64,000 bases of DNA from assembly GCA_022821145.1 (NCBI GenBank), contig JAJEEE010000025.1:18050-82049 (forward strand), read 5' to 3'. Positions within the stretch are counted from its first letter, which is position 1; every line of letters starts with the position of its first letter. This document shows positions 1,742 through 46,960 of the stretch, one piece after another. This DNA comes from Acidobacteriota bacterium (GTDB lineage Bacteria; Acidobacteriota; Terriglobia; 20CM-2-55-15). Position numbers and translations under genes: made by a program. The notes under the pieces were generated by a model. That model had not been told where the DNA came from, ran no database searches, and was given only the letters and a program-made list of their open reading frames with translations.

Positions 1742-4438
1742 TCAGTCGGCCCGAAGCGCGTCGGCGGGCCGGACGTTCGCGGCCCGCCACGCTGGGAACA
1801 GGCTGGCCAAGGTCGCGACGACGAGAATGACCCCGGCGATCGTTCCGAAAACCAGCGGGTCGTGCGGGGAGACGTCGAAAAGCAGGTCCGCGATGAACGA
1901 ACTGGCCAGGCCGGCGATCAGGACGCCCGCGGCGACCGAAACCACCGCGTTTCGGAGGCCGTCCCCGAGCACGCGGTTCAAGAGCGTTTCGCGGCTTTCT
2001 CCGACCGCGAGGCGAATCGCGAATTCCTGCCGGCGCTGCGAGGCCGCATAGGAAACAGACGACCACAGACCGATCACCGCCAGCAACACGGCCAGAATGC
2101 CGAAGGCCGTAAAGACCGAGGCGCCCAGGCGCCACGGACGGATCTGCGGATCCAGAACGTCACCCAGGGCCTCGATGCCGATATAAGGCAAGCCGGAATC
2201 CAACTCATAAAGGGCGTCGCGGATCGTGGAATCGTTCCGGCCAACGCCATCCGCCGTTCTGACGAGCAACGCCCTCGGTCCGTCGGCACTCAGCAGCAGC
2301 GGCGTATAGAAGTAGGCACGGACATCGTCCTCGACCAGGCTCCATGTCCGCGCGTCGCCCACTACGCCGACGACCGTCGCACATTCGTCGGGCCACACGT
2401 GTACATACGAGCATCGGCCGATGGGAGACTGATCGGGCCATGCCAGTCTCGCCAAGCTCTCATTGACGATGACGACCCTTCCATTCAACCGATCGGCTTC
2501 GACAAACGCCCGACCCTCGACGATGCGCATGCCTGTCGTCTGGAAGAAACCCGGCGTGACGGCGTTGGAGAAAGGAACGCCGTCCCGCGGAGAGGAGATA
2601 CTTCCCTGGTCCCGGTCGACGGCGAAAGAACCAGCACTGGCCACTCGAAGAGGCACCCTCCTGCTCACGCTGGCCCGACTCACACCCGGCAGGACCGAGA
2701 TTCGCTCAAGTGCGCGTTCGAAGAATGCGGCGTGCCCGGTGTCTCGACCGAATCGGGAAAAATCGACTTGAACGACCAGCACGTTCTCCCTGTCCAGGCC
2801 CATATTCGCGGTTTCCAGGTTGTATAGACTCCGCAAGAACAAACCCGCGCCCACCAGCAGCACGACCGACAGGGCCCCTTGTACGGCGACCAACACTCCC
2901 TGCATGCGAGGGCGCCGGGTCATGGCGGCTGAAGGGCCCTCACGGAACGACCTCAACGGGTGGGCCCGCAGGAAGTACAGAGGCGCCATCCCCGCGACCA
3001 GCGCCGTGCCGACCATCGACGCCGCCGCCACCGACAGAACACTGGGATGGACGACGGCTGAGGGTTCCCACGCCATTGCGGGGAGCAACGTCCGGTGCAG
3101 CCAAGCGCCCGCCCAAATCTGGGCGAGTATCGCCGCGGTTCCTCCCAGCACGGCCACGACCGAACTTTCGGTCAGAAGCTGGAGCGCGAGTTCCCTTCGA
3201 CCGATGCCCACCGCGAGGCGGACGGCGATTTCACGCCGGCGCCGGAGGGTACGAAGCAGCAGCAGCCCCGCAACGTTGGCGGACGCGATCAGGATGAAGA
3301 CAACCGCCACTCCGAGGAGCCAGACCGTGACGCGCGCTTCCGGAATCGGGCGGAGATTGTCTCCCAAACCACCGGTCAACGGTCCCAGGAGCGAGCGGGA
3401 TCGTCGATACGGTTCCATGCGCTCCACGGAGGCGTCCCGAAAAATCGGAGCGTAAGTCTCTTCCAGAAACGCACGCTGTAAATTGGTTAGTTCCGCCGAC
3501 GACTGCGCGGGCGAGGCTCCTTCCCTCAAGCGCAATACGATCCTCAGGGTATACGACGAACTGATCGTGTGCCACGTGACCGGTCGTCCCGACCCGTCAT
3601 CCCGGGTAAACAACGGCAGCCAGAGATCCACCTCCTGGAGTTCGACACCACGAAACCCACGTGGAGCAATCCCGACGATCGTGTACGGCTGTCCATGGAT
3701 TTCCAGCGTCTGCCCGACGATGCCGGGATCCCCGCCCAGGCGAACCTGCCAGAACGCGTGCCCCAGGACGACGACTCGGGCGCCGGTTGCCGGATGCGCT
3801 TCGCTGTCGTCGATGAAGCGCCCTATTTCGGGGCGCGTTCCCAGTGTTTCCCAGAATCCCGGAGAGACCATGACGACTTCCGCCATCTCTGCATCGATTC
3901 CAGATCCGACCGGGAGCGTCGTGTCTGCGTACGCCCCGAGGGATTCGAGAGTCCGTGCCCGCTCCGACAACAACTCGAAGAACGGATAGGATGTTGCCCC
4001 GCCAGGTTCACCCTCCCCACCATCAATCCAGAACACCTGACGGAACTTGAACACGCGATCGGGGGCTGAAACATGCGGAGGCGGCGCCAAGATCAAGTTT
4101 TGGGTGACGCTGAACATGCCGGTCACGGCGCCGATGCCGATGGCGATCGTCAGAACGGCGGTTGCCGACACGCCTGGTTGGCGGCGGATTCCTCGAAGCG
4201 CGTAGACGAGATTCCGCCGTAGAGTGTCCGACCAACCGAAGCCGGTGAGATCGTAAACGCGTTCTCTCACGGCCGTCGAGTTGCCGAACTGACGCCGGGC
4301 CGAGGCGTATGCCTCGTCGGGGGGCATCCCCGATTCTTCGTTCAACTCCGCCCGCATTGCGACGTGGGTCTCGATCTCCCGGCTTACGTCCTCGCTGATC
4401 GACGAACGGCGGAACAGCCGCTGGAACAGATTTCTCAT
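1742..4438 (-). CDS. ABC transporter permease, duplicated FtsX/MacB-like (ADOP family)
   Basis: About 898 aa from the internal start MRNLFQRLF at 4438. Two FtsX-type 4-TM blocks flank large periplasmic domains. The ATG overlaps the PadR stop (ATGA). Confidence 0.8.
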   Translation of the reverse strand: MRNLFQRLFRRSSISEDVSREIETHVAMRAELNEESGMPPDEAYASARRQFGNSTAVRERVYDLTGFGWSDTLRRNLVYALRGIRRQPGVSATAVLTIAIGIGAVTGMFSVTQNLILAPPPHVSAPDRVFKFRQVFWIDGGEGEPGGATSYPFFELLSERARTLESLGAYADTTLPVGSGIDAEMAEVVMVSPGFWETLGTRPEIGRFIDDSEAHPATGARVVVLGHAFWQVRLGGDPGIVGQTLEIHGQPYTIVGIAPRGFRGVELQEVDLWLPLFTRDDGSGRPVTWHTISSSYTLRIVLRLREGASPAQSSAELTNLQRAFLEETYAPIFRDASVERMEPYRRSRSLLGPLTGGLGDNLRPIPEARVTVWLLGVAVVFILIASANVAGLLLLRTLRRRREIAVRLAVGIGRRELALQLLTESSVVAVLGGTAAILAQIWAGAWLHRTLLPAMAWEPSAVVHPSVLSVAAASMVGTALVAGMAPLYFLRAHPLRSFREGPSAAMTRRPRMQGVLVAVQGALSVVLLVGAGLFLRSLYNLETANMGLDRENVLVVQVDFSRFGRDTGHAAFFERALERISVLPGVSRASVSRRVPLRVASAGSFAVDRDQGSISSPRDGVPFSNAVTPGFFQTTGMRIVEGRAFVEADRLNGRVVIVNESLARLAWPDQSPIGRCSYVHVWPDECATVVGVVGDARTWSLVEDDVRAYFYTPLLLSADGPRALLVRTADGVGRNDSTIRDALYELDSGLPYIGIEALGDVLDPQIRPWRLGASVFTAFGILAVLLAVIGLWSSVSYAASQRRQEFAIRLAVGESRETLLNRVLGDGLRNAVVSVAAGVLIAGLASSFIADLLFDVSPHDPLVFGTIAGVILVVATLASLFPAWRAANVRPADALRAD

Positions 4439-4764
4439 ACGCCCCCCAGCACCTTCGCAACGCTGCGTGTCAGGACGCTCCAGCGCCGCTCGACTTCCGC
4501 CAACCGGGCTCTTCCGCGACGCGTCAAGGCGTAGTAGCGGGCGCGCCGCCCCTTCTCGGTCGTCTTCCATTCGCCTTGGATGACGTTCTCGCGTTCCAGC
4601 CGGCGGAGAGCGGGATAGAGCGAGCCTTCCTCCACGCGGAGCATGCCGTCCGACACGGTCTGGATGTGCAACGTGATTCCGAAGCCGTGGTTCGGACGGC
4701 CCTCCAGAGTTTTCAGAATCAGGAGGTCCAGTGTTCCCTGAAGAGAGTCCGTCTGTTTGGGCAT
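4435..4764 (-). CDS. PadR family transcriptional regulator
   Basis: 109 aa. PadR winged-helix motif LILKTLEGRPNHGFGI...EEGSLYPALRRLE. Start-stop coupled to the downstream permease. Confidence 0.85.
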   Translation of the reverse strand: MPKQTDSLQGTLDLLILKTLEGRPNHGFGITLHIQTVSDGMLRVEEGSLYPALRRLERENVIQGEWKTTEKGRRARYYALTRRGRARLAEVERRWSVLTRSVAKVLGGV

Positions 4765-4891: not shown

Positions 4892-5260
4892 TCAGTCCAC
4901 GCGCGCCGTATCGACGATGTACGCCGAGAGGGCGGCCAGGTCGGCGTCGCTGACCTCGGTCTTGCGGAAGGGCGCCATCACGCTCACGCCGTTCCGGACG
5001 AAAAAGGCGATCCGTTCCGGCGTCAGATCGCCGCGTTCGGTCAACACCGCTGGACGGCCATCATCGTACTTGGCCGCCAGAGCCTGTGTCCCCGGCATGT
5101 TGGGACCCGCCGAATGGCACGTCGCGCACCAGTAGTCGTAGACTTCCGCGCCGCGGGCCAACTCCGCGGCGTCCGGCTCATCCTGCGCGGGCGCCGACGT
5201 CCCAGCCAAGAACGCGGCGGTGACGACCGCCGCCGCAACGAAACCGCCCAGGAGCCTCAT
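4892..5260 (-). CDS. mono-heme cytochrome c (PchC-like flavocytochrome subunit)
   Basis: This is the 3' 369 nt of the 681-aa ORF. MRLLGGFVAAAVVTAAFLAGTSAPA is a signal peptide. It carries one CATCH (CXXCH) site. The ATG overlaps the stop of the upstream VAO gene (ATGA). Confidence 0.75.
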   Translation of the reverse strand: MRLLGGFVAAAVVTAAFLAGTSAPAQDEPDAAELARGAEVYDYWCATCHSAGPNMPGTQALAAKYDDGRPAVLTERGDLTPERIAFFVRNGVSVMAPFRKTEVSDADLAALSAYIVDTARVD

Positions 5261-6858
5261 GCGTCCCTCAGGTGGCGGGGCCATATGCCGTAGCGCCCGG
5301 CCGCGATGACGCCGTTCGGGTCCACGGCGTCCTTGATCGTCTCGTGTAGCCGGATCAGGGCGTTGTCGTTGAACGCGTACGCGGCCGCGCAATCGTCCAT
5401 GAACTCCGTGTGCGTGCGGTATTCGCCCCAGCCGTGCTCGGCGGCCACCTCGACGAGCCGCCGGAAGGTGCGGCGCACGGCCTGGTTCGTCTCGATGTCC
5501 GGCATCACGTAGAACATGCAGAGAATCACGAACGTGCGCGGATGGAAGGACTGCGGGAAGACCAGCAGCGCCGTGTCGGTCCCGAATTCCTGCAGAACCT
5601 GCTGGAACACGCGCTGCGACTCGATGACGGCCTCGCCGGTCATGGGGATGACGGGAGAAAAACCGACGTGTCCGCGCGTGGCGGGAGCGAAGTTCGATCG
5701 GGCGCCGATCGAGAAGGTCGCCAGCGTCGGTATGCCCAGGTCCTGCGGGTCGCGGACGCCGGCCTTCTCGGCCTCCGTCAGCGGGAAGCGGTAGAACGCG
5801 CCGTCCCGGAAGCGCGCGCCGGGGATCGACGACAGGCGGCGCCGGGTGTAATCCCACTGCGCGCGCACGACCTCCTCGGGTCCGTAGAACTTGAAGATGT
5901 TCGAGTAGAACGGCACGCCGCGCTCGCGCGCGAACGCGTCGAGACGGGCGATGTCGGCCGCCTCGCCGCTCGCCAGGGCCGCGCGCAGGTCGGGATCCTG
6001 GGCCACCGCGAAGCGCAGCGGCGATTGCAGGTTCGTGCCGGCGTTCTGCAAGCCGGTGTTCATCACGTAGTTCATGTGATCGACGAGCGGGATGACGTCG
6101 TCGTGACCGAACACCTCGACCGTGCCGTCGATATAGGCTTCCGGTTCCGGCATCAGCCAGACGCCCATCTTGGTGACGACGCCGAAGTTGGACTGCGAGA
6201 ACATCCCGTCGATGTACGGCCCGTATCCGTACTTGAAGTGCTGCCACGTCGTCGAGCCCGGCAGCGCGCCCATTCCCGTGCGCACCAGCTCGCCGGAGCC
6301 GGTCACGACCTCCATCCCGCAGTGGGCGTCGAAGTGGTCGCGGTACGGGTTCATCGTGTAGCCGACCCCGTGGTCCAGCGCGTTGCCGACGACGCTGCCC
6401 CAACCCGGGTCCGGGCAGTCGATCCACAGCTTGAGCCCGCGGTCCTGTATGTAGCGGTAGAGGTCGAAGTAGCTGACGCCGGGCTCGACCAGCGCGTAGG
6501 CGTTCCGCTCGTTCACTTCGAGAATCCGGTTCATGCGCTTCAGGTCGAGCACGACGCTGCCGGACAGCACCGGCGCGGCGCCGCCGTATCCGAGGTTCCG
6601 GCCCGTCGAGATCGGATAGAGCGGCACGCGAAACTCGTTGGCGACGCGCACGACGGCCTGGACCTGGTCGGCCGAGCCGGGCGCGACGGCCGCCGAGGCC
6701 ACTTTCTCGTCGGGCTCGTTCCACAGCGGCGAGTATGCGTCGCGGTACAAGGCGACATCCGCGTCGCCGGTGAAGACCCACTCCTCGCCCACGATGCCGC
6801 GCCAACGAGAGATCGCGTTGTCGAAATCCGTCTGACGGACTCCTCGGGGAAGCGTCAT
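5257..6858 (-). CDS. FAD-linked oxidase, vanillyl-alcohol oxidase / p-cresol methylhydroxylase flavoprotein family
   Basis: 534 aa from MTLPRGVRQTDFDNAISRWRGIVGEEWVF (GGAGG RBS). FAD_binding_4 and VAO C-terminal motifs (ISTGRNLGYGGAAP, RYGIWP). No signal peptide. Confidence 0.85.
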   Translation of the reverse strand: MTLPRGVRQTDFDNAISRWRGIVGEEWVFTGDADVALYRDAYSPLWNEPDEKVASAAVAPGSADQVQAVVRVANEFRVPLYPISTGRNLGYGGAAPVLSGSVVLDLKRMNRILEVNERNAYALVEPGVSYFDLYRYIQDRGLKLWIDCPDPGWGSVVGNALDHGVGYTMNPYRDHFDAHCGMEVVTGSGELVRTGMGALPGSTTWQHFKYGYGPYIDGMFSQSNFGVVTKMGVWLMPEPEAYIDGTVEVFGHDDVIPLVDHMNYVMNTGLQNAGTNLQSPLRFAVAQDPDLRAALASGEAADIARLDAFARERGVPFYSNIFKFYGPEEVVRAQWDYTRRRLSSIPGARFRDGAFYRFPLTEAEKAGVRDPQDLGIPTLATFSIGARSNFAPATRGHVGFSPVIPMTGEAVIESQRVFQQVLQEFGTDTALLVFPQSFHPRTFVILCMFYVMPDIETNQAVRRTFRRLVEVAAEHGWGEYRTHTEFMDDCAAAYAFNDNALIRLHETIKDAVDPNGVIAAGRYGIWPRHLRDA

Positions 6859-7409
6859 GTTCGGAAGCCTCCGATGCTCGCCCTCGCGCGGGCCGACGGA
6901 CGAGCGGGAGCGATGATCCAGGAATGCAGGACCGCATCGTCGTCGGACGCGGCCGGCATGGCTGCCTCGCTCGGCCCGCGCGGCGAGGTCTCTTCCAGTC
7001 GCGCCCGGGCCATGGCCTCGGCCACGCGCTCGGGCAACGCGCCGTCCGTCCACGGGGCCGCGTGCCTGCCGTGGTACACGACCCGCATTCCGTGGTCCCA
7101 CGCCAGGCGCTCCAGGCAGAACAACGCCCCTCGCGCGGTCAACCCCGCCAGGGGCGCCGGTTCGACCGTCCAGCGCGGGTGGAGCTCTTCGAACCAGAGC
7201 CGCGTGACGTCCCCGTCGATGGCGCGTGGCTCCAAGCCGAAGGGCCGAATCGCGTCGGCGAAACGGCGGGCCGGCTCGAACCTTCGGTCGAACACGGCCA
7301 TGCGGGGGCCGGGCGCGTCCATGGACGTCTCCGAGCGCGCGACAATCGGCGCAGCCGCGGCCAGCGCCGTGGCCCGGAGGAACTCACGCCGGTTCGTCAC
7401 TGGATTCAC
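6855..7409 (-). CDS. hypothetical protein with twin-arginine (Tat) signal
   Basis: Inferred GTG start gives VNPVTNRREFLRATALAAAAPIVA (S/T-RRxFL Tat motif). About 184 aa. Its stop overlaps the VAO start (ATGA) and its start overlaps the stop of the upstream small secreted gene (GTGA). Confidence 0.45.
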   Translation of the reverse strand: MNPVTNRREFLRATALAAAAPIVARSETSMDAPGPRMAVFDRRFEPARRFADAIRPFGLEPRAIDGDVTRLWFEELHPRWTVEPAPLAGLTARGALFCLERLAWDHGMRVVYHGRHAAPWTDGALPERVAEAMARARLEETSPRGPSEAAMPAASDDDAVLHSWIIAPARPSARARASIGGFRT

Positions 7410-7828
7410 CGCTCCTCGTCCTCGCCGGGCGCGCCCGTCCCGGGCGAGCCCAGGAACAATTGCGACCCGTCGGGCAGCGTGACGTTGCGCCCGTTCGCCG
7501 CGTTGGACCCGTCGCGGTGACGGTAGCCGAAAACGACGACCGCGGTGCCGTTCGGGATGGAATCCCGGGTCATGCCCCGGCGGACGAGCGTGTTGGGACT
7601 GCCCGCCTCGATCATCCAGCTTTCGACGGCGCCGTCCTGGCCTTCGACGTCGATGTGAAGCCACGCATGCGGATTGATCCACTCGATGCGCGTGATGGTG
7701 CCCTCGAGCGTGATCGGCTGGTTCTCGTCGAACTCCGCCGAGAACGCGTGGTGGGCCGCCGCGGGCGCCGCCGCGACCAGGACGGCGCCGGCAAGAACCG
7801 CCGCTTGCATCCATCGGGAGCTATTCAT
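7406..7828 (-). CDS. small secreted protein, family A (predicted mature N-terminus His-His)
   Basis: 140 aa from MNSSRWMQAAVLAGAVLVAAAPAAA|HHAFSAEFDENQPITLEGTITRIEWINPH. GGAGG RBS. It is a paralog of the 21858-22232 product. Confidence 0.55.
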   Translation of the reverse strand: MNSSRWMQAAVLAGAVLVAAAPAAAHHAFSAEFDENQPITLEGTITRIEWINPHAWLHIDVEGQDGAVESWMIEAGSPNTLVRRGMTRDSIPNGTAVVVFGYRHRDGSNAANGRNVTLPDGSQLFLGSPGTGAPGEDEER

Positions 7829-8786
7829 CTCCGGCCTCCGCTCGGCGTTCCTCCGCCCGCGCCGCCGAGAGCAAGCCGCGCAGTCCGTAGTTGCCCTCGT
7901 GACACGCGAATTCAATGAGCGGTCCCGCCTGGGGGTGCATGAAGATCTCCACGGTCCAGGGCTCGGTGAATACGTCGGGGTCGTCGATGGTGGCCCGGTA
8001 GCGGATCTGATCCGGCGCGGTGCGCGTGAATTCCTCCGTAACCCGGAAATTGTCGCTCATGACGGAATTCAGGTACTGGACGCCGTAGAAGTGCCTGTTG
8101 GGCCGTTGGTTCGCGGTTTCCACCACCAGCGTGTCGCCCTCCCAGCGGCCCCGCGAGTCGCCCGTCCACTGTCGTACGCGGTCGGGAAAGTGCGGGCGGC
8201 CGTCGATCGGAATGATCCGGACCTCGTGGTTGAGCTCGGCCATGATCGTCACGTAGTCGGGCGTCTGCACGATGTAGTAGTTGTTGTTGTAGGGCTCCGG
8301 GAACATCGGCGCGGCTCCGCCCCCGAACACGATGCATCGTTCGGTCAGGTACCGGTCCTCGGGCGAATCGGCCGGGTGCTCTGCCATGTAGGCCAGGTTC
8401 TCCTCGAACCGGCGCTGCGCCTCCGGCGTGAAGGGGGGAACGCGGCCGTCGGCGGGCTCGATCACCAGCGACGTACGCAGGGTGGGCACGATAGAGTTGC
8501 CGCGGTCGAACCAGGCGTCGTTGTACGAGCCGACCGATCCCGGCTGCCCGATGGTCCGGTCGGCGTTGGTGGCCTCGATTCTCTCCCGGACGTAGGCTTC
8601 GGCTTCCTCGGGCGTGAAGAACTCCGTGTCCGCAAGCTCGGACGGGCGCTGGAGCGGCGTCAGCGTCGCGTTCGACCACAGTCCCTGCAGATCCGGATCG
8701 CCCCACGACGTGCGCTGTGCGAGGCCTTCGGCCGGAACCGCGGACATCGCCAGCGCCGCCATGGCGAGAATGTGTCGATGGGTCAT
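7821..8786 (-). CDS. secreted protein, family B paralog (B2)
   Basis: 321 aa from MTHRHILAMAALAMSAVPAEGLA. It shares the motifs WEGDTLVVET and DDPDVFTEPWT with 8801-9583 and 22232-22996. I rejected the 5' extension of the 584-aa ORF. Confidence 0.6.
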   Translation of the reverse strand: MTHRHILAMAALAMSAVPAEGLAQRTSWGDPDLQGLWSNATLTPLQRPSELADTEFFTPEEAEAYVRERIEATNADRTIGQPGSVGSYNDAWFDRGNSIVPTLRTSLVIEPADGRVPPFTPEAQRRFEENLAYMAEHPADSPEDRYLTERCIVFGGGAAPMFPEPYNNNYYIVQTPDYVTIMAELNHEVRIIPIDGRPHFPDRVRQWTGDSRGRWEGDTLVVETANQRPNRHFYGVQYLNSVMSDNFRVTEEFTRTAPDQIRYRATIDDPDVFTEPWTVEIFMHPQAGPLIEFACHEGNYGLRGLLSAARAEERRAEAGDE

Positions 8787-8800
8787 CGTTCGGCTCCTCG

Positions 8801-9583
8801 TCACTCGTCCGGCCGCCGGATGAATTCGCCGTAGAGCAGTTCCTCGGTGAACTCCACGCACTTGAACTCCATCAAGTGCGCGTCGGGGTCGGGATTCCGG
8901 TACAGACGGAAACGCATCGTCCACGGCCGGGAGAACGTTTCGGGATCTTCGATCGTGGCCTCGTACTCCATGACGTCGGGTCCCGTCAGCGTGTACCGCT
9001 CGACGACGCGCGTCCCGGCGCCCGCGTGGTTGCCGGCGCGGTCCAGCCAGGCCAACCCGTTGAAGCCGGTCACCTCGACGACCAGCGTGTCGCCGTCCCA
9101 ACTCGCGTTCGACCAACCCATCCAACTGTCGAGGGGCGACGGGCGGTGGTCGCTCAGGTTGATGATGCGCGCGGCGCCCGCGAACTGGTACGTGAACTGC
9201 ATGTACCCTTCGGAGTGGAAGATCTGGAACGGATAGGGCATGTAGTTCGCTCGAGGGACACCGGGCATGAAGCACTTCGCCTCCGGATCCTCCGTCCAAC
9301 GGCTCTCGAAGTTGCGGTCCCTTTCGGCCGCCGCCTCGGGAAGATAGGGGATTTCGTCGCCGTCGACGATGCCGCGGCCCGGGGGCGCGGCCATGAGCGC
9401 GCCGTATTCGGGCGGCCCCGCGCCGGCGCCGTGCGTCAGGATATTCCAGTTCGCCGTGGTCAACGACTGCCAGACTCCGCTGAGATTCGGCGTGCCGTCC
9501 GACAGCCGCGGGATGTCCGTTCCGGCGCACCCTCCCGCCGCCACCGCCGCGGAGATCAGGCACGGAACGAACCATCGTCTCAT
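8801..9583 (-). CDS. secreted/lipoprotein, family B paralog (B1)
   Basis: 260 aa. AAGGAG RBS. The signal MRRWFVPCLISAAVAAGGC is lipobox-like. Motifs IPRLSDGTP, WDGDTLVVEV and EDPETFSRPWT. Confidence 0.65.
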   Translation of the reverse strand: MRRWFVPCLISAAVAAGGCAGTDIPRLSDGTPNLSGVWQSLTTANWNILTHGAGAGPPEYGALMAAPPGRGIVDGDEIPYLPEAAAERDRNFESRWTEDPEAKCFMPGVPRANYMPYPFQIFHSEGYMQFTYQFAGAARIINLSDHRPSPLDSWMGWSNASWDGDTLVVEVTGFNGLAWLDRAGNHAGAGTRVVERYTLTGPDVMEYEATIEDPETFSRPWTMRFRLYRNPDPDAHLMEFKCVEFTEELLYGEFIRRPDE

Positions 9584-9602
9584 CGCGGTCTCCTTGTCTT
9601 CG

Positions 9603-10862
9603 TCACTCGCCGGCGGGCTCGATGCGCAGGATCGACCCGTCGGGCGTGAGCCGGGCGCTTCCCGGACCGGATTGCAGGTCCCGCTCGACGGCGATGTAGA
9701 CGTTGCCGTCGGGTCCCTGGCGGACGTCCCGCACTCGAACGTCGAGGGGGATCAGCATGGAATCGCGGCGCTCGGGCTGCGGCGGCGGCTGATCGAAGGC
9801 CACGCGTTGCAACTGCTGCCCGCTCAACCCACCGATGAAGTAGTGCCCGCGCCACAACGGGAACCGGTCGCCGTCGTAGATCATCAGGCTGGACGGACTG
9901 ATCGCCGGAACCCAGAACATCACCGGCATCTCGATGCCGGGCCCCCACCAGGGCTGTTCGGAGGCGAGATTGCCGGTGTAGATCTTCCCCAGCGACACCA
10001 CCGGCCATCCGTAGTTCGCTCCGGGAACCAGCCGATTGAGCTCGTCGCCGGCCATCGGCCCGATTTCCGTGGCCCAGAGCTCGCCGGTCTCCGGATGCCA
10101 CGCCAGGCCCTGAGCGTTGCGATGACCGTAGGTGAAGATCTCGGGCAGCGCGTCGTCGCGCCCGGCGAACGGATTGCCGGGCGCCGCCCGGCCGTCGTCG
10201 CTCAACCGCAGCACCTTTCCGACGTGGTTGTCGAGCCCCTGAGCCAGCATGCGGTAGCTTGCGTCGTCGGTCAGATTGCCGGCGTCCCGGTCGCCGACGG
10301 TCAGGTACAACATCCCGTCGGGACCGAACTCGGCGCGCCCCGCCGTCGCGCCGCTGCCCCACGCCTCGGCCACGAACACGTCCTCGACTTCCGACAACGC
10401 CGCCCCGTCGAAACGCGCCCGCGCCAGTGCGACCGTGGTGCCCTCATCGCCCGCCTTGATGTAGGACAGGTAGACCCAACGGTTCTCTTCGAAATCCGGA
10501 TGAAGCGCGACCGAGTTCAGGCTTTCGGAGCGCAACGCGTCGTCGGGCCAGCCGGCGACCGGCGATGGATCGAGCCCATCGTCGCCCACGATGCGCAACC
10601 GGCCGGGGAACTCCGTCACGAGCATGTCGCCGTCCGGCAGGAAGGTCAGGTGCCACGGCCGCACCAGGCCATCGGCGACGGTCACCACGCGAATGCGCAC
10701 CAACTCGCCCGGCGGGCATCCGCCATGCAGTCCGCCGTTCGGAGAGCACGGACCGGGGGTGTACGTATCGAACACCCAGGTCGCGGCGTCGTCGGGAGCC
10801 TGGCGGCAGGACGCGGCGAGCAGCAGGACGCCCGCCAACATGGCCGTTCGGTGCGCGTGCAC
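9603..10862 (-). CDS. PQQ-dependent soluble sugar (aldose) dehydrogenase, YliI/SGDH family lipoprotein
   Basis: 419 aa. Lipobox LAASC. GSDH-family beta-propeller motifs YGHRNAQGLAWHPETGELWATE and GANYGWP. Confidence 0.8.
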   Translation of the reverse strand: MHAHRTAMLAGVLLLAASCRQAPDDAATWVFDTYTPGPCSPNGGLHGGCPPGELVRIRVVTVADGLVRPWHLTFLPDGDMLVTEFPGRLRIVGDDGLDPSPVAGWPDDALRSESLNSVALHPDFEENRWVYLSYIKAGDEGTTVALARARFDGAALSEVEDVFVAEAWGSGATAGRAEFGPDGMLYLTVGDRDAGNLTDDASYRMLAQGLDNHVGKVLRLSDDGRAAPGNPFAGRDDALPEIFTYGHRNAQGLAWHPETGELWATEIGPMAGDELNRLVPGANYGWPVVSLGKIYTGNLASEQPWWGPGIEMPVMFWVPAISPSSLMIYDGDRFPLWRGHYFIGGLSGQQLQRVAFDQPPPQPERRDSMLIPLDVRVRDVRQGPDGNVYIAVERDLQSGPGSARLTPDGSILRIEPAGE

Positions 10863-10969
10863 TGTCGTCCTCCGTTCGAGTGGGCGTGCGTTACCGACGA
10901 TAGGCGTCCGGTTCCGCCGGCGTCAAGTCGTTTCCGAAACCGGACGGACCCGCGCCGGGACGGCAACGC

Positions 10970-12217
10970 CTACCTGAGAATGCCCTCGAGCACGTCGAGG
11001 CGTCCGTCGATCTCCTCGACGATCTCGAGTCCGAGAATCCGCATGACGAGCGGGTATATGTGGATGTTCTCGAAGCTCGGAATCGTCATCGCGTCGGCCA
11101 GCCCGGGCCCCTGCGCGAAGAAGACGCCGTGCATATCGGGATGGCGGACCGGGTCGTAACCGTGCGCGCCGCCGGAAACCTCGCCGCGCATGTTTCGGAA
11201 ACGAATCGAATAGGGGGCCTCGGCCGCCACGATCAGGTCTCCGAGCCGGGGGTGCGCCGCGTTCCAGTGCTCGGGCGTTTCGCCGGACCGGAACACCCGA
11301 TAGTGGTTCTCCGCGTTCTTCAGGGCTTCGTACAGCGCCTCAACGCGCGCTTCGCCGTCAACGTACAGGAGGCTGTGGCTCCCGGATCCGATCGCGCGAA
11401 CTCCCTGTAGATCCACGATGTCGTCCAGATAGATCACGCGTGCGGGATCCACGTCGACCATGCCGTGGTCGGAAACGACGAACACGTTGACGCCGAAATC
11501 GAGCGCGCGGAGGCCGTCGAAGAGGACGCCCAGTTGATCGTCGAGCCGCGCGATCGCCGAGGCAAGCTCCTCGGAGCGCGTCCCATGGTCATGCGCGGCG
11601 GAGTCGATCGCGGCAAAGTAGAGCGTCACCAGGTGCGGCCGGTATTCCTCGGGCCAGGAGAACCATTCCAGGACGGCCCGGACGCGTTCGGCCTGCGCGA
11701 TCGATCCGTCGTACCGGTAGTAGTAGGAGGGATGCACGCCCTGGATGTCCGCTTCCGTACCCACCCAGAAGTAACTCGCGGTAACCATCCCGGCCCGTTC
11801 GGCAGCCACCCAGAGCGGCGTGCCGCCGTACCATCCGCCGTCTTCGACGGCATCGCGGTCTCCCAGTCGATAGCGCGCGTTGCGCGTGCGGTCGAAGAAA
11901 TCGTTGCTGACGATGCCATGCGTCCCCGGGTACATTCCGGTCGCGATCGTGTAATGGTTCGGGAACGTCTCCGAGGGATAACCGGGCACGAAACTCTCGG
12001 CCCGGACGCCCTCGGCGGCCCATCGTTCCAGGTTCGGCGCGTCGTGGACGTCCAGGTAGTCGTGACGGAACCCGTCCAGGGAGATCAGCAAAACGTACGG
12101 CTTGCCGCGGTGCTCCTCCGCGTTGGCCCGCATGAAGGGCGACTGAGGCGACGCCGACTCCGGGCACGCGGCAAGACCGAGACCGAGGACGGCAAGAAAC
12201 GCCGCCCTGAGCTTCAT
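10970..12217 (-). CDS. ectonucleotide pyrophosphatase/phosphodiesterase (alkaline-phosphatase superfamily) lipoprotein
   Basis: Start MKLRAAFLAVLGLGLAAC (lipobox). NPP motifs ISLDGFRHDY, FPNHYTIATG and VVSDHGM. Confidence 0.75.
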   Translation of the reverse strand: MKLRAAFLAVLGLGLAACPESASPQSPFMRANAEEHRGKPYVLLISLDGFRHDYLDVHDAPNLERWAAEGVRAESFVPGYPSETFPNHYTIATGMYPGTHGIVSNDFFDRTRNARYRLGDRDAVEDGGWYGGTPLWVAAERAGMVTASYFWVGTEADIQGVHPSYYYRYDGSIAQAERVRAVLEWFSWPEEYRPHLVTLYFAAIDSAAHDHGTRSEELASAIARLDDQLGVLFDGLRALDFGVNVFVVSDHGMVDVDPARVIYLDDIVDLQGVRAIGSGSHSLLYVDGEARVEALYEALKNAENHYRVFRSGETPEHWNAAHPRLGDLIVAAEAPYSIRFRNMRGEVSGGAHGYDPVRHPDMHGVFFAQGPGLADAMTIPSFENIHIYPLVMRILGLEIVEEIDGRLDVLEGILR

Positions 12218-12271
12218 CCCCCGCAGGCCTTGGCCGTGCCGAAGAATCCCGTCCATCGAGTCGTACGGCCG

Positions 12272-12907
12272 CTACTCGCGGTCAGCCGGCGGGTACAGGC
12301 CGCGGAGGACGGCCCGATCGTTGGACGAGAGCCCGGAGTGGCTCGCGATATCGGCACGTCCGTCCAGCCGCTCGCGGTACCGCATGAAGTAGCGCACGAT
12401 ATCGCCCCCGAAGCCGAACGAATACATGATGTCCTCGAAGTCGGCGGTGTGCGGCAGCCCCAGAGCGTGACCCAGCTCGTGAACGCAGGTCAGATAGACG
12501 ATCGTGTCCCTCAGTAGAGGATCTCGCGCGCCCAGTTCCGCGATGGCGGGCCCCTGGTTGTCGATGCCGGGCGTCACGTACACGAAGGCCCGTGGCCGGC
12601 CGTCGATCACGACGCGGCGCATTTCCCCGTACAGTCCGCTGCCGGGATCGATCCACACCAGACGGATGATCGCGTCCTCCTCCGCGCCGGCTTCCACGAA
12701 CCGCACACGGCCCGCGCTTTCCCGCGCCCACGCTTCGAACGCGGCGCGCGCCAGGTCGTCATCGGACGGCTCGTATCCGGACACGCCGGCGCCATCGGCG
12801 ATGAAATAGGGTATGGGTTCGCCGGCGTCCGGCGCGTTCGGACCGGCCTGGGTGGCGAGGGCCGCAACGCCCAACGCGACGGCCATCGCGGCGGTTCCCG
12901 GGAGCAT
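12272..12907 (-). CDS. zinc metalloprotease, matrixin-like (HExxHxxGxxH)
   Basis: About 211 aa from MLPGTAAMAVALGVAALA. It contains VHELGHALGLPH. The start overlaps the pyrE stop. Confidence 0.55.
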   Translation of the reverse strand: MLPGTAAMAVALGVAALATQAGPNAPDAGEPIPYFIADGAGVSGYEPSDDDLARAAFEAWARESAGRVRFVEAGAEEDAIIRLVWIDPGSGLYGEMRRVVIDGRPRAFVYVTPGIDNQGPAIAELGARDPLLRDTIVYLTCVHELGHALGLPHTADFEDIMYSFGFGGDIVRYFMRYRERLDGRADIASHSGLSSNDRAVLRGLYPPADRE

Positions 12908-13455
12908 CAGGCGAGCAGCTCCCGGGCGGTAAAGAGCGGATAGAAGGAATAACGCGCGCCCACGGCTTCGGTGCCGCCTTCCTCGCGGTCGACCACGCAT
13001 ACGACCGCGGCCACCCGGTAGCCGGCCGCCTCGACCTCGTCGCATGCCTTGAGAATGGATCCACCGCTCGTGCACACGTCATCGACGACCACGACGCGGT
13101 CGCCCGGTGAGCCGCTCCACCCCTCGATCCGCCGGCCGGTCCCGTGGCCCTTGACCTCCTTTCGAACGATGAAAGCGGGCATGGGAGTGTCCTCGATCGC
13201 GCTCACCGCCGCCACCGCGCCAGCGATGGGATCGGCTCCCAACGTCGGCCCCCCGAGGGCCACGGCGTCGACGCCGTGTTCGCGAAGCGTCCGCAGGATC
13301 AAGCGGGCCGTCAGAAAGGCGCCGAGGGGATGGAGCGTGGTGACCCGGCAATCCAGATAGTACGACCCCTTCCGGCCGGAGGTCAGCACGAACTCGCTTT
13401 TCCGGAGCGAATGCTTGCGGATCAACTGGCTCAGGGCGCCACGGTCGTCGTCCAT
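12907..13455 (-). CDS. pyrE: orotate phosphoribosyltransferase
   Basis: 182 aa. PRTase motif VVVVDDVCTSGGS. Type-I PRT fold length. Confidence 0.8.
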   Translation of the reverse strand: MDDDRGALSQLIRKHSLRKSEFVLTSGRKGSYYLDCRVTTLHPLGAFLTARLILRTLREHGVDAVALGGPTLGADPIAGAVAAVSAIEDTPMPAFIVRKEVKGHGTGRRIEGWSGSPGDRVVVVDDVCTSGGSILKACDEVEAAGYRVAAVVCVVDREEGGTEAVGARYSFYPLFTARELLA

Positions 13456-21159: not shown

Positions 21160-21786
21160 ATGGGCGCAAACGACGAACTGTACGGCTTCGTGAAGGAGGC
21201 GATGGCGCGCGGCGCGGCGCTGGAGCAGATTCGCGGCGCCCTCGTGGACGCGGGATGGGACGAGTCCCGTGTCCGGCAGGCCCTGGCGGCCTATGACGAG
21301 GGCGCGCTCGGAATTCCGGTGCCGCGGCCCCGGCCGTCCGAGGCGCGAGAGGCTCTCGTGTATCTGGTCCTGTTCGCCACCATATACTTGAGCGCGTTCA
21401 ACCTGGGCAACGTGGCTTTCCAACTCGTCAACCGCGGCTTTCCCGTGGCCGGCCAATCGGACGTCCAGGTCGACGACGCGATTCGGTTGTCGGCCTCCAT
21501 TCTCGTCGTCTCGCTGCCCGTGTTCCTGGTGCTGACGCGCGCGACCCGGCGCGCGGTCGAACGCGACCCGTCGCGCCGGGCATCGGCCATGCGCCGGTGG
21601 CTGACATCCCTGACGCTGGCCGTATCGTCGTTCGCGTGTCTGGGGGTCTTCAGCACGATCGTGTACAACTTCCTCGGCGACGCCCTGACGGCGCGTTTCG
21701 TCCTGAAGGCGCTTTCGGCCGGGATCATCGCCGCCGGCGTGTTCGCCTACTATCTGCGGGACATCCGCGAGGACGCCGCGCCCTGA
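21160..21786 (+). CDS. hypothetical membrane protein
   Basis: 208 aa. N-terminal soluble segment then about 4 hydrophobic helices. AAGGGG RBS. Confidence 0.45.
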   Translation: MGANDELYGFVKEAMARGAALEQIRGALVDAGWDESRVRQALAAYDEGALGIPVPRPRPSEAREALVYLVLFATIYLSAFNLGNVAFQLVNRGFPVAGQSDVQVDDAIRLSASILVVSLPVFLVLTRATRRAVERDPSRRASAMRRWLTSLTLAVSSFACLGVFSTIVYNFLGDALTARFVLKALSAGIIAAGVFAYYLRDIREDAAP

Positions 21787-21857: not shown

Positions 21858-22232
21858 ATGTCACGGCTATATTTCTTGGTCCCGATTGCCTTCGCGGTCG
21901 GGATGACCGCGGAGGCGGCGCATCACTCGATCGCCGCCGAATTCGACGCGGAGGATCCGATCACGCTCGTCGGCACGATTCGCGAAGTCGTCTGGATGAG
22001 CCCGCACATCAGCGTCTTCGTCGACGTGACGCAGGACGGCGGCGAGGTCCGGACGTACGAAGTGCAGGGCGGACCGCCGAATCGGCTCTACCGGAACGGC
22101 TCCCGGTCCACGGACCTGATGCCGGGCGACGCGGTCGTCGTCGAAGGCGCGCGCGCCCGGAACCCGGACAGCCTCCGCGTGGGCGAGGGCGAGTTCCACA
22201 AGCCCGACGGCACGCCGGTATGGGCGGACTGA
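21858..22232 (+). CDS. small secreted protein, family A paralog (A2)
   Basis: 124 aa. GGGAGG RBS. MSRLYFLVPIAFAVGMTAEAA|HHSIAAEFDAEDPITLVGTIREVVWMSPH aligns with 7406-7828. Its stop overlaps the next ATG (TGATG). Confidence 0.55.
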   Translation: MSRLYFLVPIAFAVGMTAEAAHHSIAAEFDAEDPITLVGTIREVVWMSPHISVFVDVTQDGGEVRTYEVQGGPPNRLYRNGSRSTDLMPGDAVVVEGARARNPDSLRVGEGEFHKPDGTPVWAD

Positions 22233-22996
22233 TGCGGCCGCGGATCGCCCGGGCGCTTTTCGCCGTCTTCTTCGTCTCTTCGCTCGCGTCCGCCCAGGAC
22301 GCCGGCGACGCCATTCCGCGCCTGCCCGACGGAAAGCCGAGCATGGCCGGGTTCTGGGGGCAGGTCCGCCGCGCCGACGTGACCGACTCCCGAATTCCGG
22401 GATATGTCGAAGAGCTGCCGTTCAGCGAATGGGGGCTCGAGCAATGGGAAAACTACGACCGGACCGATCCGGAACAGGGCGACTACGCGGGCAGTTGCAT
22501 GCCGTTCGGAATCTCCCGCACCGTTTTCGGCCCTCAACCGATCGCCATCGTGCAGGATGACGACCACCTGGTCTTCCTGGCCGAGCAGAACTCCTGGTTT
22601 CACATGGTTCCGACCGACGGCCGCGGTTACGATCCCGAGCTTCCGCCGTCGTGGTGGGGCGATTCGGTCGGACGCTGGGACGGCGACACCCTGATCGTCG
22701 AGACGCGCAACCTGAACGGCTACGCCAAGGTCGACACGATCGGACATCCCATCAGCAGCCTGGCGACCATCATCCAGACCTTCGAGCGCGTCGACGCCGA
22801 AACCATCGAGCACACGTACACGCTCGACGACCCGGGGGCCTACACCGAGCCCTGGACCGTGCGCAACACGTGGAGACACCACCCACCGGGTTTCCGGATG
22901 ATGGAATACTCCTGCATGGAGAACAACCTGACCGGGTTGACGGGAGGCACGCTCATTCCGTGGAAGCGGCCCACCGAGACCCGGCCCCCGGACTAA
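22232..22996 (+). CDS. secreted protein, family B paralog (B3)
   Basis: 254 aa. Signal MRPRIARALFAVFFVSSLASA. Motifs IPRLPDGKP, WDGDTLIVET and DDPGAYTEPWT. Confidence 0.65.
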   Translation: MRPRIARALFAVFFVSSLASAQDAGDAIPRLPDGKPSMAGFWGQVRRADVTDSRIPGYVEELPFSEWGLEQWENYDRTDPEQGDYAGSCMPFGISRTVFGPQPIAIVQDDDHLVFLAEQNSWFHMVPTDGRGYDPELPPSWWGDSVGRWDGDTLIVETRNLNGYAKVDTIGHPISSLATIIQTFERVDAETIEHTYTLDDPGAYTEPWTVRNTWRHHPPGFRMMEYSCMENNLTGLTGGTLIPWKRPTETRPPD

Positions 22997-23025: not shown

Positions 23026-24522
23026 ATGCGTATTTTCACGCCGCTCGTCATCGTCGCGATCGCACTGCCCGCCGCCGGCGCCGCGCCGTTGCAGATCACG
23101 GAAAATCCCCTGCCGGAACCCGTGGAGATGCACGGCCTGCGCGCCGAAGTTCGCCAACTCGCGCGGCTGCCCGAAACCCAGGGACGTCTGCCCGAGGACC
23201 GGGACGCGGCCGGTTTCGCGCGCGTCAGCTTCGTCCGCGACGCCCCGGACGGCCGGCGCTTCGTCAACGACTCGCGCGGATACCTGTACATCCTGGACGC
23301 GGACGACCGGTTGACGCTCTACCTGGACTTCGCCGAAGCCTTGCCGTTCACGGCCTACAACCGGCTCGAGAGCGGGTTCATCGGCTTCGATTTCCACCCG
23401 GAATTCGCCGCGACCGGACTGTTCTATACGGTCCACGGCGAGTACGCGCCCGACAACCCCGCCCGGCCCGACTTCATTCCGCCCGGGTTCACCCTCGACG
23501 ACGCCACCTACTACAACGTCATCACCGAGTGGCGCGCCTCATCGCCCGCGGCCGACGCCTTCGATGGAACCCGCCGCGAACTCCTCCGAGTCGCCCACGT
23601 CGTCGACAGCCTGACCCATCCCTTCGGCTACGTCGGTTTCAATCCGACCGCGACGCCGGGCGACGCCGATTACGGGTTGCTCTACACCAGCGGCAGCGAC
23701 ATCGGTTTCAGCAACGGGGCCGGTCCGAATGCCCCAAGGGCTGGACAGTTGCAGCGGCTGGACTCCGTGGTCGGAGCGATACTTCGCATCGATCCGCGCA
23801 GCCCGTCCGAGTCGGGAGGCCAGAAGGGACTCGGGGATTACACGATCCCTCCCGACAACCGTTTCGCGTCGGACGGCGACGCCGAGACGCTGGGCGAGAT
23901 CTACGCACACGGTTTCCGCAATGCGCACCGGCTGTCATGGGACGCCGAGGACGGAACGCTGTTCGCCACCGACATCGGGATGAACCACATCGAGGAGGTC
24001 AACATCGTCCGCAACGGCGAGAACTACGGCTGGATGCAGCGCGAGGGGTTCTTCGACAACGGCATCAACTTCCCGGGCGGCGAGCTCGACCAGCTGTATC
24101 TCCTGCCCCCGGATGTGCTGACGGGCGAGACCGAGGACGGGTTCACGTATCCGGTGGCGATCTACGATCACGACGAAGGCCGCGCCATATCGGGCGGGTT
24201 CGCCTACCGCGGCGCGATCGAAGCCCTGCGCGGCAAGTTCGTTTTCGGCGACATCCGCCTGGGACGGATCTTCGCGGCCGACCTGGAAGCGATGAAGGCG
24301 GCCGACGACGGCGTCCCCACGACGGTCGCGCCCGTCGAGGAAGTCCAACTCTTCGTGCGGGACTCGGACGGCCGGGAACGGGACGTCACGTTCATGGAGC
24401 TGGTGGAGGAAACCAACGGCGCCCCCGTCGAGCGGACCGACCTGCACATCAGCCAGAGCGGAGACGGCGAGCTGTTCCTGACGTCGAGACAGGACGGCAC
24501 GGTCCGCATGCTCGTCCCGTAG
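23026..24522 (+). CDS. PQQ-dependent sugar dehydrogenase-like beta-propeller (SGDH family)
   Basis: 498 aa. AGGAGG RBS. Signal peptide. Motifs HGFRNAHRLSWDAEDGTLFATDIG and GENYGWMQ. Confidence 0.75.
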   Translation: MRIFTPLVIVAIALPAAGAAPLQITENPLPEPVEMHGLRAEVRQLARLPETQGRLPEDRDAAGFARVSFVRDAPDGRRFVNDSRGYLYILDADDRLTLYLDFAEALPFTAYNRLESGFIGFDFHPEFAATGLFYTVHGEYAPDNPARPDFIPPGFTLDDATYYNVITEWRASSPAADAFDGTRRELLRVAHVVDSLTHPFGYVGFNPTATPGDADYGLLYTSGSDIGFSNGAGPNAPRAGQLQRLDSVVGAILRIDPRSPSESGGQKGLGDYTIPPDNRFASDGDAETLGEIYAHGFRNAHRLSWDAEDGTLFATDIGMNHIEEVNIVRNGENYGWMQREGFFDNGINFPGGELDQLYLLPPDVLTGETEDGFTYPVAIYDHDEGRAISGGFAYRGAIEALRGKFVFGDIRLGRIFAADLEAMKAADDGVPTTVAPVEEVQLFVRDSDGRERDVTFMELVEETNGAPVERTDLHISQSGDGELFLTSRQDGTVRMLVP

Positions 24523-46749: not shown

Positions 46750-46960
46750 GGACGGAAATATCGTATCAGCGGCGCCGCGCCCGTTGGCGGCAATCGATTC
46801 GGGCCGACTGCCGACGTACGGAACCGGCTCGACGGCATGTCGCGAGCGCACCGCCGAACCCGGCCGGACATAAACCTTGAAATCGGTCTTGCGGGGCCGG
46901 ATAATTCGCCGCAGACTCCGGAAAGCTATGCATCCGGCGCAGGGCCGGCTAGGAGAAATC

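Follow-up and report, generated by a model that had tools for sequence, protein, structure and literature searches.

We analysed a 64,000-nt window of an Acidobacteriota genome (contig JAJEEE010000025.1) in which two loci combine a pyrroloquinoline quinone (PQQ)-type sugar dehydrogenase (SGDH) with two other kinds of exported protein: a DUF6152 protein, here called A, and a member of an unnamed, predicted barrel family, here called B. The initial annotation had treated these three families as one periplasmic module. Our comparisons strongly support A plus B, and not a trio with the dehydrogenase, as the conserved unit, and this pairing occurs in thousands of soil and sediment bacteria. The comparisons also firmly establish that A-B lies preferentially, though not usually, beside periplasmic PQQ-type propellers, including both dehydrogenases of the window. 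The reading that we favour, at a probability of about 40%, is that A-B would be a metal-centred, dedicated partner of periplasmic dehydrogenases: A would carry the metal, probably copper, B would bind a small ligand, and the complex would relay or accept electrons.

The window has 66% G+C, and its codon-position GC supported the reading frames of the initial annotation. The genes that it had listed at both loci were present at the coordinates and in the order given, with start codons and good ribosome-binding sites, and signal peptides were visible on all seven products, as it had also claimed.

9603..10862, minus strand: SGDH1, an exported six-bladed PQQ-type soluble aldose/glucose dehydrogenase of 419 amino acids (PF07995, E 1.8e-101)
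8801..9583, minus strand: B1, an exported protein of 260 amino acids from the unnamed B family ('B1 type', the short form; paralog of B2 and B3), predicted to be a fatty-acid-binding protein (FABP)/lipocalin-like barrel
7821..8786, minus strand: B2, exported, 321 amino acids, of the 'B2 type', the long form with an additional segment at the N-terminus (assigned by B paralogy)
7406..7828, minus strand: A1, a DUF6152 protein of 140 amino acids with a Sec signal ending in AAA and a mature start of His-His at His26 of the precursor (PF19649, E 4.7e-34)
21858..22232, plus strand: A2, a DUF6152 protein of 124 amino acids with a signal ending in EAA and a mature start of His-His (PF19649, E 1.5e-21)
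22232..22996, plus strand: B3, an exported B-family member of 254 amino acids with a conserved Cys89/Cys228 pair (assigned by B paralogy), predicted to be an FABP/lipocalin-like barrel
23026..24522, plus strand: SGDH2, a divergent exported six-bladed propeller of the GSDH family, 498 amino acids (PF07995, E 2.1e-20)

At both loci the genes are tightly packed or overlapping. Locus 1 reads SGDH1, B1, B2, A1 on the minus strand, with spacings of 19 nt (SGDH1-B1) and 14 nt (B1-B2) and an 8-nt overlap of B2 with A1. The run continues past A1 into a protein with a twin-arginine (Tat) signal, a flavoprotein and a cytochrome c, making seven same-strand genes with overlapping stop and start codons (10862 down to 4892). 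SGDH1 begins with GTG behind a GGAGG ribosome-binding site and has a possible lipobox (LAASC). Locus 2 reads A2, B3, SGDH2 on the plus strand; the A2 stop codon overlaps the B3 start by 1 nt, and 29 nt separate B3 from SGDH2.

The family assignments were consistent with this picture. Both dehydrogenases exceeded the Pfam gathering threshold of PF07995 (25 bits), SGDH1 with 340.2 bits and SGDH2 with 73.7 bits, and the R-N of the HRN motif was visible in each (YGHRNAQGLAW and HGFRNAHRLSW). In BLASTP they shared only a 94-residue local match (E 6e-12), which agrees with their earlier description as different members of the GSDH family. The nearest solved chains to SGDH1, aligned over ~335 residues, were the glucose dehydrogenase 7cdy (E 1.5e-56) and E. 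coli YliI/Asd (2g8s, E 2.8e-47); SGDH2 matched solved PQQ sugar dehydrogenases only locally, over ~65 residues (3das, E 1.9e-9). A1 (116.8 bits) and A2 (76.7 bits) both passed the 27-bit threshold of PF19649, and B1-B3 had no match in Pfam or NCBIfam even at E <= 1. The initial annotation had matched neither family to a named domain; this stands for B, and A has a name, DUF6152, if an uninformative one.

Within the window, the three B proteins proved to be mutual paralogs, as had been proposed (B1/B3 E 5e-23, B1/B2 E 1e-19, B2/B3 E 2e-26; 26-33% identity by BLASTP), and the motifs on which that proposal drew are the most conserved positions over 141 B domains. A1 and A2 are likewise paralogs (E 3e-21, 38% identity), and tblastn revealed no further A or B copies in the 64 kb. 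With identities of only 26-38%, the two loci are ancient paralogs, and we rejected a recent tandem duplication, in agreement with the initial annotation. A conserved lipoprotein anchor for B1 was also rejected, because its lipobox is not kept in B1 orthologues.

Linkage was counted with purpose-built A and B profiles run against six-frame translations of comparison loci (numbered L; single homologues are numbered P). The neighbourhood samples comprised 80 B-seeded loci and 80 A-seeded metagenome loci out of more than 590; the A-seeded scan used a narrow alignment, which biased that sample towards HH[SA]F[AS]AEF-type sequences, and its metagenome contigs were short. Gene calls in the comparison loci came from a crude in-house method. 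In the first three neighbourhoods, B always adjoined DUF6152, and the other DUF6152 genes there adjoined unannotated proteins that are distant B members. Among the B-seeded loci, B lay within 1 kb of 58 of the 62 A genes, the other four being within 3 kb or at locus edges. B stood beside A in 71 of the 80 independently A-seeded loci, and the nine exceptions were contigs shorter than 3 kb. In the reverse direction, A lay within 1 kb in only 33 of the 80 B-seeded loci. Therefore, A depends on B, and B does not depend on A.

Three layouts recurred: B1-type/B2-type/A, as in locus 1 and very common across phyla; A/B3-type, as in locus 2; and a fused A-B protein. In many loci a B1-type orthologue (40-81% identity) comes first, followed by a B2-type gene and A; in dozens, a B2-type orthologue (35-84% identity) is the gene immediately before DUF6152. 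Single genomes hold numerous paralogous A/B sets, and as many as three pairs can fall within 20 kb. One fusion (L003:6092-7222) has 377 residues, with DUF6152 N-terminal and B C-terminal; its best 120 matches were all 365-425 amino acids long with coverage of at least 92%. An AlphaFold2 model built from this 120-sequence alignment formed one two-domain body (predicted local distance difference test score, pLDDT, 86.7; predicted template-modelling score, pTM, 0.83). A protein of another architecture (L001:11161-13107, minus strand, 648 residues) joins an N-terminal B domain to a C-terminal part of ~400 residues that has no Pfam match, and adjoins a DUF6152 gene.

We then compared the dehydrogenase neighbours. 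The order SGDH1-B1-B2-A1 was kept in four other loci (L005, L007, L008, L096), all of whose flanks differ; the SGDH1 orthologues there are 75-79% identical, B and A 66-84%, and the A1 orthologues 73-86%. In L039, from an Acidobacteriota genome, a B gene of another subtype has a 70%-identical SGDH2 orthologue immediately upstream. Relatives of B3 had varied surroundings:

P0005, 84% identity: A-B, then an SMP-30/gluconolactonase-type propeller
P0002, 80% identity: A-B, then insertion sequence (IS) fragments
P0008, 72% identity: LigAB upstream
P0010, 65% identity: B stands alone

Across the B family, a GSDH-like gene lay within 10 kb in 4 of the 80 loci and within 1.5 kb in 2 (~2.5%), as counted with GSDH detectors that were single-sequence profiles and that divergent members could escape. 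At ~2.5%, two such loci in one 64-kb window are unlikely by chance. Of the three-family module, then, the pairing of A with B held up, as did the attachment of SGDH1 in four further contexts and of SGDH2 in one; a family-wide association with GSDH genes did not. Co-occurrence with PF07995, which the initial annotation had suggested scoring, was likewise clade-specific, with a family-wide near/far split of 2 versus 2 that was not significant. The dehydrogenase link is real but clade-specific.

The family-wide enriched neighbour is instead the eight-bladed PQQ dehydrogenase (PF01011). It was the commonest co-oriented adjacent family (6 of 102 genes), followed by NHL propellers, metallo-beta-lactamase fold proteins and others, and an iterated search placed PF01011-type genes in 14 of the 80 B loci. 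Of 15 such genes, twelve were no more than 1.5 kb from A/B, where the sequence available predicts a fraction of 0.29 (p 5.7e-5, an optimistic value because the loci are partly orthologous (L015/L016/L018; L038/L041) and represent nearer nine independent events). The A-seeded set showed a PQQ gene followed by B and A in four loci (L113, L117, L126, L128), and NHL and SGL propellers, both six-bladed, and DUF5128 propellers recurred nearby. L005 contains a further A/B pair (L005:520-5455), which lies beside another periplasmic dehydrogenase set: a glucose-methanol-choline (GMC) oxidoreductase with its Gluconate_2-dh3 Tat subunit, and an unannotated protein of 254 residues. Other neighbours of A/B were lactonase-type propellers, a tannase-like DUF6351 protein, LigAB and a flavoprotein of the vanillyl-alcohol oxidase/p-cresol methylhydroxylase (VAO/PCMH) type. 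Most loci that combine a PQQ dehydrogenase with A/B lacked a stand-alone CxxCH gene. A July 2026 preprint describes six-bladed PQQ enzymes as often annotated as NHL-repeat proteins, with genes commonly found beside those of cytochromes c4 or c551, which it predicts to be the electron acceptors (bioRxiv 10.64898/2026.07.10.737718); neither that study nor a chemical-proteomics paper on PQQ (PMC13088180) mentions A- or B-like proteins.

These counts could also be read as showing no functional tie at all: A-B would be an independent periplasmic binding module, and its adjacency to GSDH genes a lineage-specific accident kept by descent. The scarcity of GSDH-like genes family-wide and the even near/far split agree with such an accident, as do the B3 relatives at 65-84% identity that lack SGDH2. 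In addition, to judge by A (73-86% identity), the other four operons of the SGDH1 type belong to rather closely related genomes, and shared descent could explain them. It is harder to reconcile with a four-gene order that is kept while every flank differs, with an SGDH2 orthologue from another genome whose B neighbour is of another subtype and whose gene order is changed, with the positional enrichment of PQQ propellers as a class beside A/B, and with genes that overlap or lie 14-29 nt apart. We consider an accident of descent quite unlikely.

In all full-length DUF6152 sequences examined, His-His follows immediately after a predicted cleavage site of the AxA type. Across 54 distinct sequences (mature A1 numbering), H1, H2, P28 and H29 were invariant (100%), D9 and R58 were conserved in 96%, and N27 in 94%; H29 is the histidine of an Asn-Pro-His motif. 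The fusions behave in the same way: A is N-terminal, and His-His comes directly after Ala in 120 of the 120 listed. In two reversed fusions, with B followed by an oligonucleotide/oligosaccharide-binding (OB) domain (P0482, P0366), His-His is lost and the Asn-Pro-His motif is replaced by SNPY and ENPL; this OB domain may be a metal-free structural version of A. Such joint loss is expected if the N-terminal amine, H1, H2 and H29 form one site. The pattern points to, but does not prove, a metal site in A that needs a free N-terminus, and in A1 the candidate ligands are H1, H2, D9 and H29. By analogy, copper is the most likely metal. The N-terminal His logic resembles that of the histidine brace as defined in PMC10952591. 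A lanthanide or calcium chaperone role for A was dropped, since histidine ligands would be ill-suited to those metals.

Structure models were computed with AlphaFold2 and compared with fold libraries, including Foldseek against the PDB. By these models A is an OB-fold protein; for A1 the prediction comes through the homologous domain of the fusion model. The fold of A had no match among known brace families, whether immunoglobulin/FnIII-like (lytic polysaccharide monooxygenases, LPMOs) or cupredoxin-like (CopC, PmoB, YcnI). A literature search returned no paper on DUF6152/PF19649 or DUF6644, and none joining the histidine brace with an OB fold. The nearest named homologs of A1 are labelled as metagenome-assembled genomes of Gammaproteobacteria, whereas the PadR-permease pair described below and the SGDH2 orthologue suggest lineages like Acidobacteriota.

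The B family is large. At E <= 0.001 its profile matched 17,368 representatives of clusters at 50% identity, and at the stricter E <= 1e-10 it still matched 8,927; B3 as a query returned 328 unnamed homologs, and a pattern scan of one genome per species confirmed at least 594 B loci. Among the matches listed, these were mostly in Acidobacteriota (Bryobacterales, Vicinamibacterales), Gammaproteobacteria and Gemmatimonadota, with a few in Alpha- and Betaproteobacteria and Actinobacteria. Over the 141 domains, the N-terminal P-D-x-x-G-x-W is well kept (G 98%, W 90%), as is a D-P motif (100% and 96%). A Cys pair (99% and 94%), with one residue before the first barrel strand and the other after the last, is taken to be a disulfide. 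Other conserved motifs are D-G-R; G-x-S-x-G-x-W-x-G-D-T-L-V-V; E-R; T; P-W; and E-x-x-C-x-E. The model of the window's B3 (117 sequences; pLDDT 86.9, pTM 0.83) contains an antiparallel up-and-down barrel that superposes on FABPs and lipocalins. Foldseek against the PDB agreed, although no match reached E <= 0.001. Searches of all PDB sequences with the B and fusion profiles gave one chance match only, and the B profile found no solved sequence at E <= 10. As modelled, B is a new family of FABP/lipocalin-like barrels, a ligand-binding type of fold.

The composition of B also bears on a second explanation, in which A-B delivers components to enzymes: B would hold a cofactor such as PQQ and A a metal, and both would be passed on, either to newly exported apo-enzymes or to a transporter in the membrane. 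Four Arg and three to four Trp are conserved in B, and in quinoproteins PQQ is bound by residues of this kind; the PQQ neighbours of A/B, which have two unrelated folds, share the cofactor only. There are precedents for delivery in CopC with CopD, YcnI with YcnJ, and ZinT with ZnuA. DUF6644 is a small membrane protein with four helices, and tandem pairs of its gene immediately adjoin DUF6152 genes in at least 13 loci (L097, L102, L118, L124, L127, L135, L152, L164, L029, L011, L155, L167, L138; for example, L118:6764-7774), an echo of the CopC/CopD arrangement, and a Fur-family regulator follows one A/B module (L106). DUF6644 itself has an invariant His in its first transmembrane helix and a weak match to DUF2214. 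However, one carrier should suffice per cofactor, and genomes hold many paralogous A/B sets; copper- and zinc-homeostasis families are not among the top neighbours; PQQ enzymes use calcium or lanthanides, for which the histidine ligands would be a poor match; and the window has no DUF6644 gene. We regard delivery as unlikely, if somewhat less so than an accident of descent.

Alternatively, A-B might be a self-contained metalloenzyme, an oxidase, oxygenase or hydrolase whose small-molecule substrate would sit in the B barrel and whose catalytic metal would come from A; the dehydrogenase encoded next to it would then give reducing equivalents or share the substrate stream. The mature N-terminal His and invariant second His of A, with their resemblance to the brace definition, would fit a catalytic site, the many conserved charged residues of B are more in keeping with an active site than with a passive pocket for lipids, and several of the neighbours listed above are catabolic enzymes (the lactonase-type propellers, DUF6351, LigAB and the VAO/PCMH flavoprotein). 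Yet B often occurs without A, and the metal is thus not essential to the basic function of B; no substrate can be named, and the geometry of the site is a prediction from sequence. We place a self-contained enzyme on a par with the accident of descent, as a reading that is probably wrong.

The initial annotation had suggested that the partner proteins may serve a periplasmic oxidation chain as accessories or electron acceptors. Such a role fits the gene context, and the redox-partner reading that we favour would work as follows. One A subunit and one or two B subunits would form a periplasmic complex. Cleavage of the signal peptide would expose the His-His of A, and His1, His2, Asp9 and the histidine of Asn-Pro-His would form the metal site, with copper as the metal by analogy with histidine-brace proteins. 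B would hold a small organic ligand and serve as a docking platform for A, a role suggested by its conserved Cys pair and its Arg, Trp, Asp and Glu residues. The pair would act as a cassette set beside periplasmic oxidoreductases, most often PQQ-dependent propellers. In the window, A-B would be co-transcribed with SGDH1 (and the flavocytochrome c) and with SGDH2, as the dedicated partner of both. It would accept electrons from the reduced dehydrogenase, in the gene position that a cytochrome c takes beside other PQQ dehydrogenases.

Several observations weigh against a redox partnership. Some 75-80% of A/B loci lack a nearby PQQ-type gene, and 47 of the 80 B loci have no A within 1 kb, with B-only arrays of up to four or five genes, so B has a function of its own. 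At the P0005 locus, the SMP-30/gluconolactonase-type propeller occupies the position of SGDH2, and that family is usually hydrolytic, not redox. Locus 1 itself ends with a cytochrome c that could serve SGDH1. A site of three His plus Asp is atypical as an electron-transfer centre, and the N-terminal tail of A is modelled at low confidence in the fusion. The partial orthology of the PF01011 loci and the reach of the single-sequence GSDH detectors, both noted above, count on the same side.

CopC, YcnI/DUF1775, the PmoB site and the LPMO histidine brace resemble A in being Sec-exported, with a strictly conserved His as mature residue 1 and a second invariant His, and CopC/CopD and YcnI/YcnJ, like some A genes, are found beside small membrane proteins. 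A differs from all of these in having an OB fold and not a cupredoxin-like or Ig-like sandwich, in starting His-His, in its barrel partner and in the lack of any sequence relationship. CusF, the periplasmic Cu(I)/Ag(I) chaperone, is, like A, a small OB-like barrel with histidines near the mature N-terminus, and its profile alignment with A was collinear; A lacks the Met and Trp ligands of CusF. Homology of A to CusF was rejected on an hhalign probability of 3.6% (obtained with an approximate CusF sequence) and the lack of a CusF_Ec Pfam match. The cytochromes c beside PQQ dehydrogenases (cL/XoxG, c550, c4, c551) share the gene position of A/B and Sec export. A1, A2, B1, B2 and B3, in contrast, have no CxxCH, and cysteine is entirely absent from mature A1 and A2; A and B cannot be c-type cytochromes or type-1 copper proteins. 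B shares its barrel superfold with the calycins (FABP and cellular retinol-binding protein, lipocalins, nitrobindin, YceI, ZinT), yet falls into no described Pfam calycin family and matches no solved sequence. It is ~100 residues longer, with N- and C-terminal extensions joined by the conserved Cys pair, and has an obligate OB-fold partner in many loci.

For a metalloenzyme that is reduced by a dehydrogenase there is a fungal precedent. The AA12 PQQ pyranose dehydrogenase reduces histidine-brace AA9 LPMOs, and this system likewise pairs a GSDH-type six-bladed PQQ sugar dehydrogenase with a protein whose mature N-terminus is His. There, however, a haem b domain (AA8) mediates and the acceptor is a polysaccharide-active LPMO, whereas A-B has no haem domain, another fold and a small-ligand barrel. 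A more specific version of the copper idea would make DUF6152 and B a new class of brace-type copper protein: an OB fold docked on a lipocalin-like barrel, receiving electrons from PQQ dehydrogenases and oxidising or oxygenating a small molecule held in the barrel. We think this very unlikely, more so than any of the explanations above. A and B lie outside every characterised family tested (histidine-brace folds, CusF, cytochromes, cupredoxins and named calycins), with only superfolds shared. A-B is new as a system, and its function may prove to be a variant of the metallochaperone or electron-carrier theme.

The remaining genes of the two runs, and a putative promoter, were:

10897..10926, minus strand: putative sigma-70-like promoter (TTGACG, 18-nt spacer, TATCGT; 9 of 12 positions match)
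6855..7409, minus strand: small protein of 184 amino acids with a Tat signal (TAT_signal match only), its start overlapping the A1 stop
5257..6858, minus strand: VAO/PCMH-type 4-phenol-oxidising flavoprotein of 533 amino acids (FAD_binding_4), translationally coupled to the Tat protein
4892..5260, minus strand: monohaem class I cytochrome c of 122 amino acids with a CATCH motif and a Sec signal (PF13442, E 9e-15)
21160..21786, plus strand: DUF5671 membrane protein (PF18920, E 2.8e-24), 72 nt upstream of A2

The scan of the 107-bp gap upstream of SGDH1 gave two promoter-like sites against 0.8 expected, and the listed match is a weak but possible candidate for the start of the operon. The flavoprotein matched p-cresol methylhydroxylase 9h40 (E 7.9e-187). 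As it lacks a signal, it may be ferried across the membrane into the periplasm by the Tat protein. The cytochrome c, last of the seven genes, overlaps the flavoprotein stop by 4 nt. This tail of Tat protein, flavoprotein and cytochrome c was confined to the source contig and near-identical relatives; other SGDH-B-B-A operons lack it, and the Tat protein gene was present in L090-L092 and absent from L005, L007 and L008.

Directly after the operon lie a PadR regulator and a duplicated MacB/FtsX-type permease of ~900 amino acids (1742-4764, minus strand), a pair typical of Acidobacteriota and Gemmatimonadota, and L093 has the two genes close to a relative of B3. SGDH1 is preceded by two genes of its own strand (10970-13075, minus strand), for a nucleotide pyrophosphatase/phosphodiesterase (PF01663) and an M10-like metalloprotease, which are kept in that place only in close relatives of the source contig (L090-L092). 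Whether the DUF5671 gene belongs to the locus 2 unit is uncertain. An MmgE/PrpD-DUF5671 fusion stands beside B genes in one Acidobacteriota locus (L014:12060-14132), perhaps by coincidence; as this was the only other locus with DUF5671 next to B, we rejected DUF5671 as a regular partner of A/B. About 20 kb from locus 2, a protein combines CBM9 with DUF5916 (44569-47145, minus strand), an architecture that also adjoins B genes in L083 (L083:11760-13994). No PQQ biosynthesis genes were among the annotated genes of the window, and its other genes form an ordinary chromosomal context: threonyl-tRNA synthetase (ThrRS), PheT, Ffh, IspH and a resistance-nodulation-division (RND) pump.

B is a very large family, with ~17,000 clusters at 50% identity, that lacks a Pfam or NCBIfam model. 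In A, the invariant His-His is lost exactly when the domain is not N-terminal, which predicts that a metal is bound through the free N-terminus. Should copper be the metal, a new fold would join the few known for histidine-brace-type sites. A module that serves PQQ dehydrogenases would bear on how soluble six-bladed enzymes are linked to metabolism without an adjacent cytochrome, a question that matters in Acidobacteriota and their relatives, where six-bladed PQQ sugar dehydrogenases are abundant. The brace-type copper protein, if real, would be a bacterial counterpart, in another fold, of the fungal AA12-LPMO pairing, and would be widespread in soil Acidobacteriota, Gemmatimonadota and Gammaproteobacteria. 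Even if the redox idea fails, A-B offers structural and functional genomics a well-defined target.

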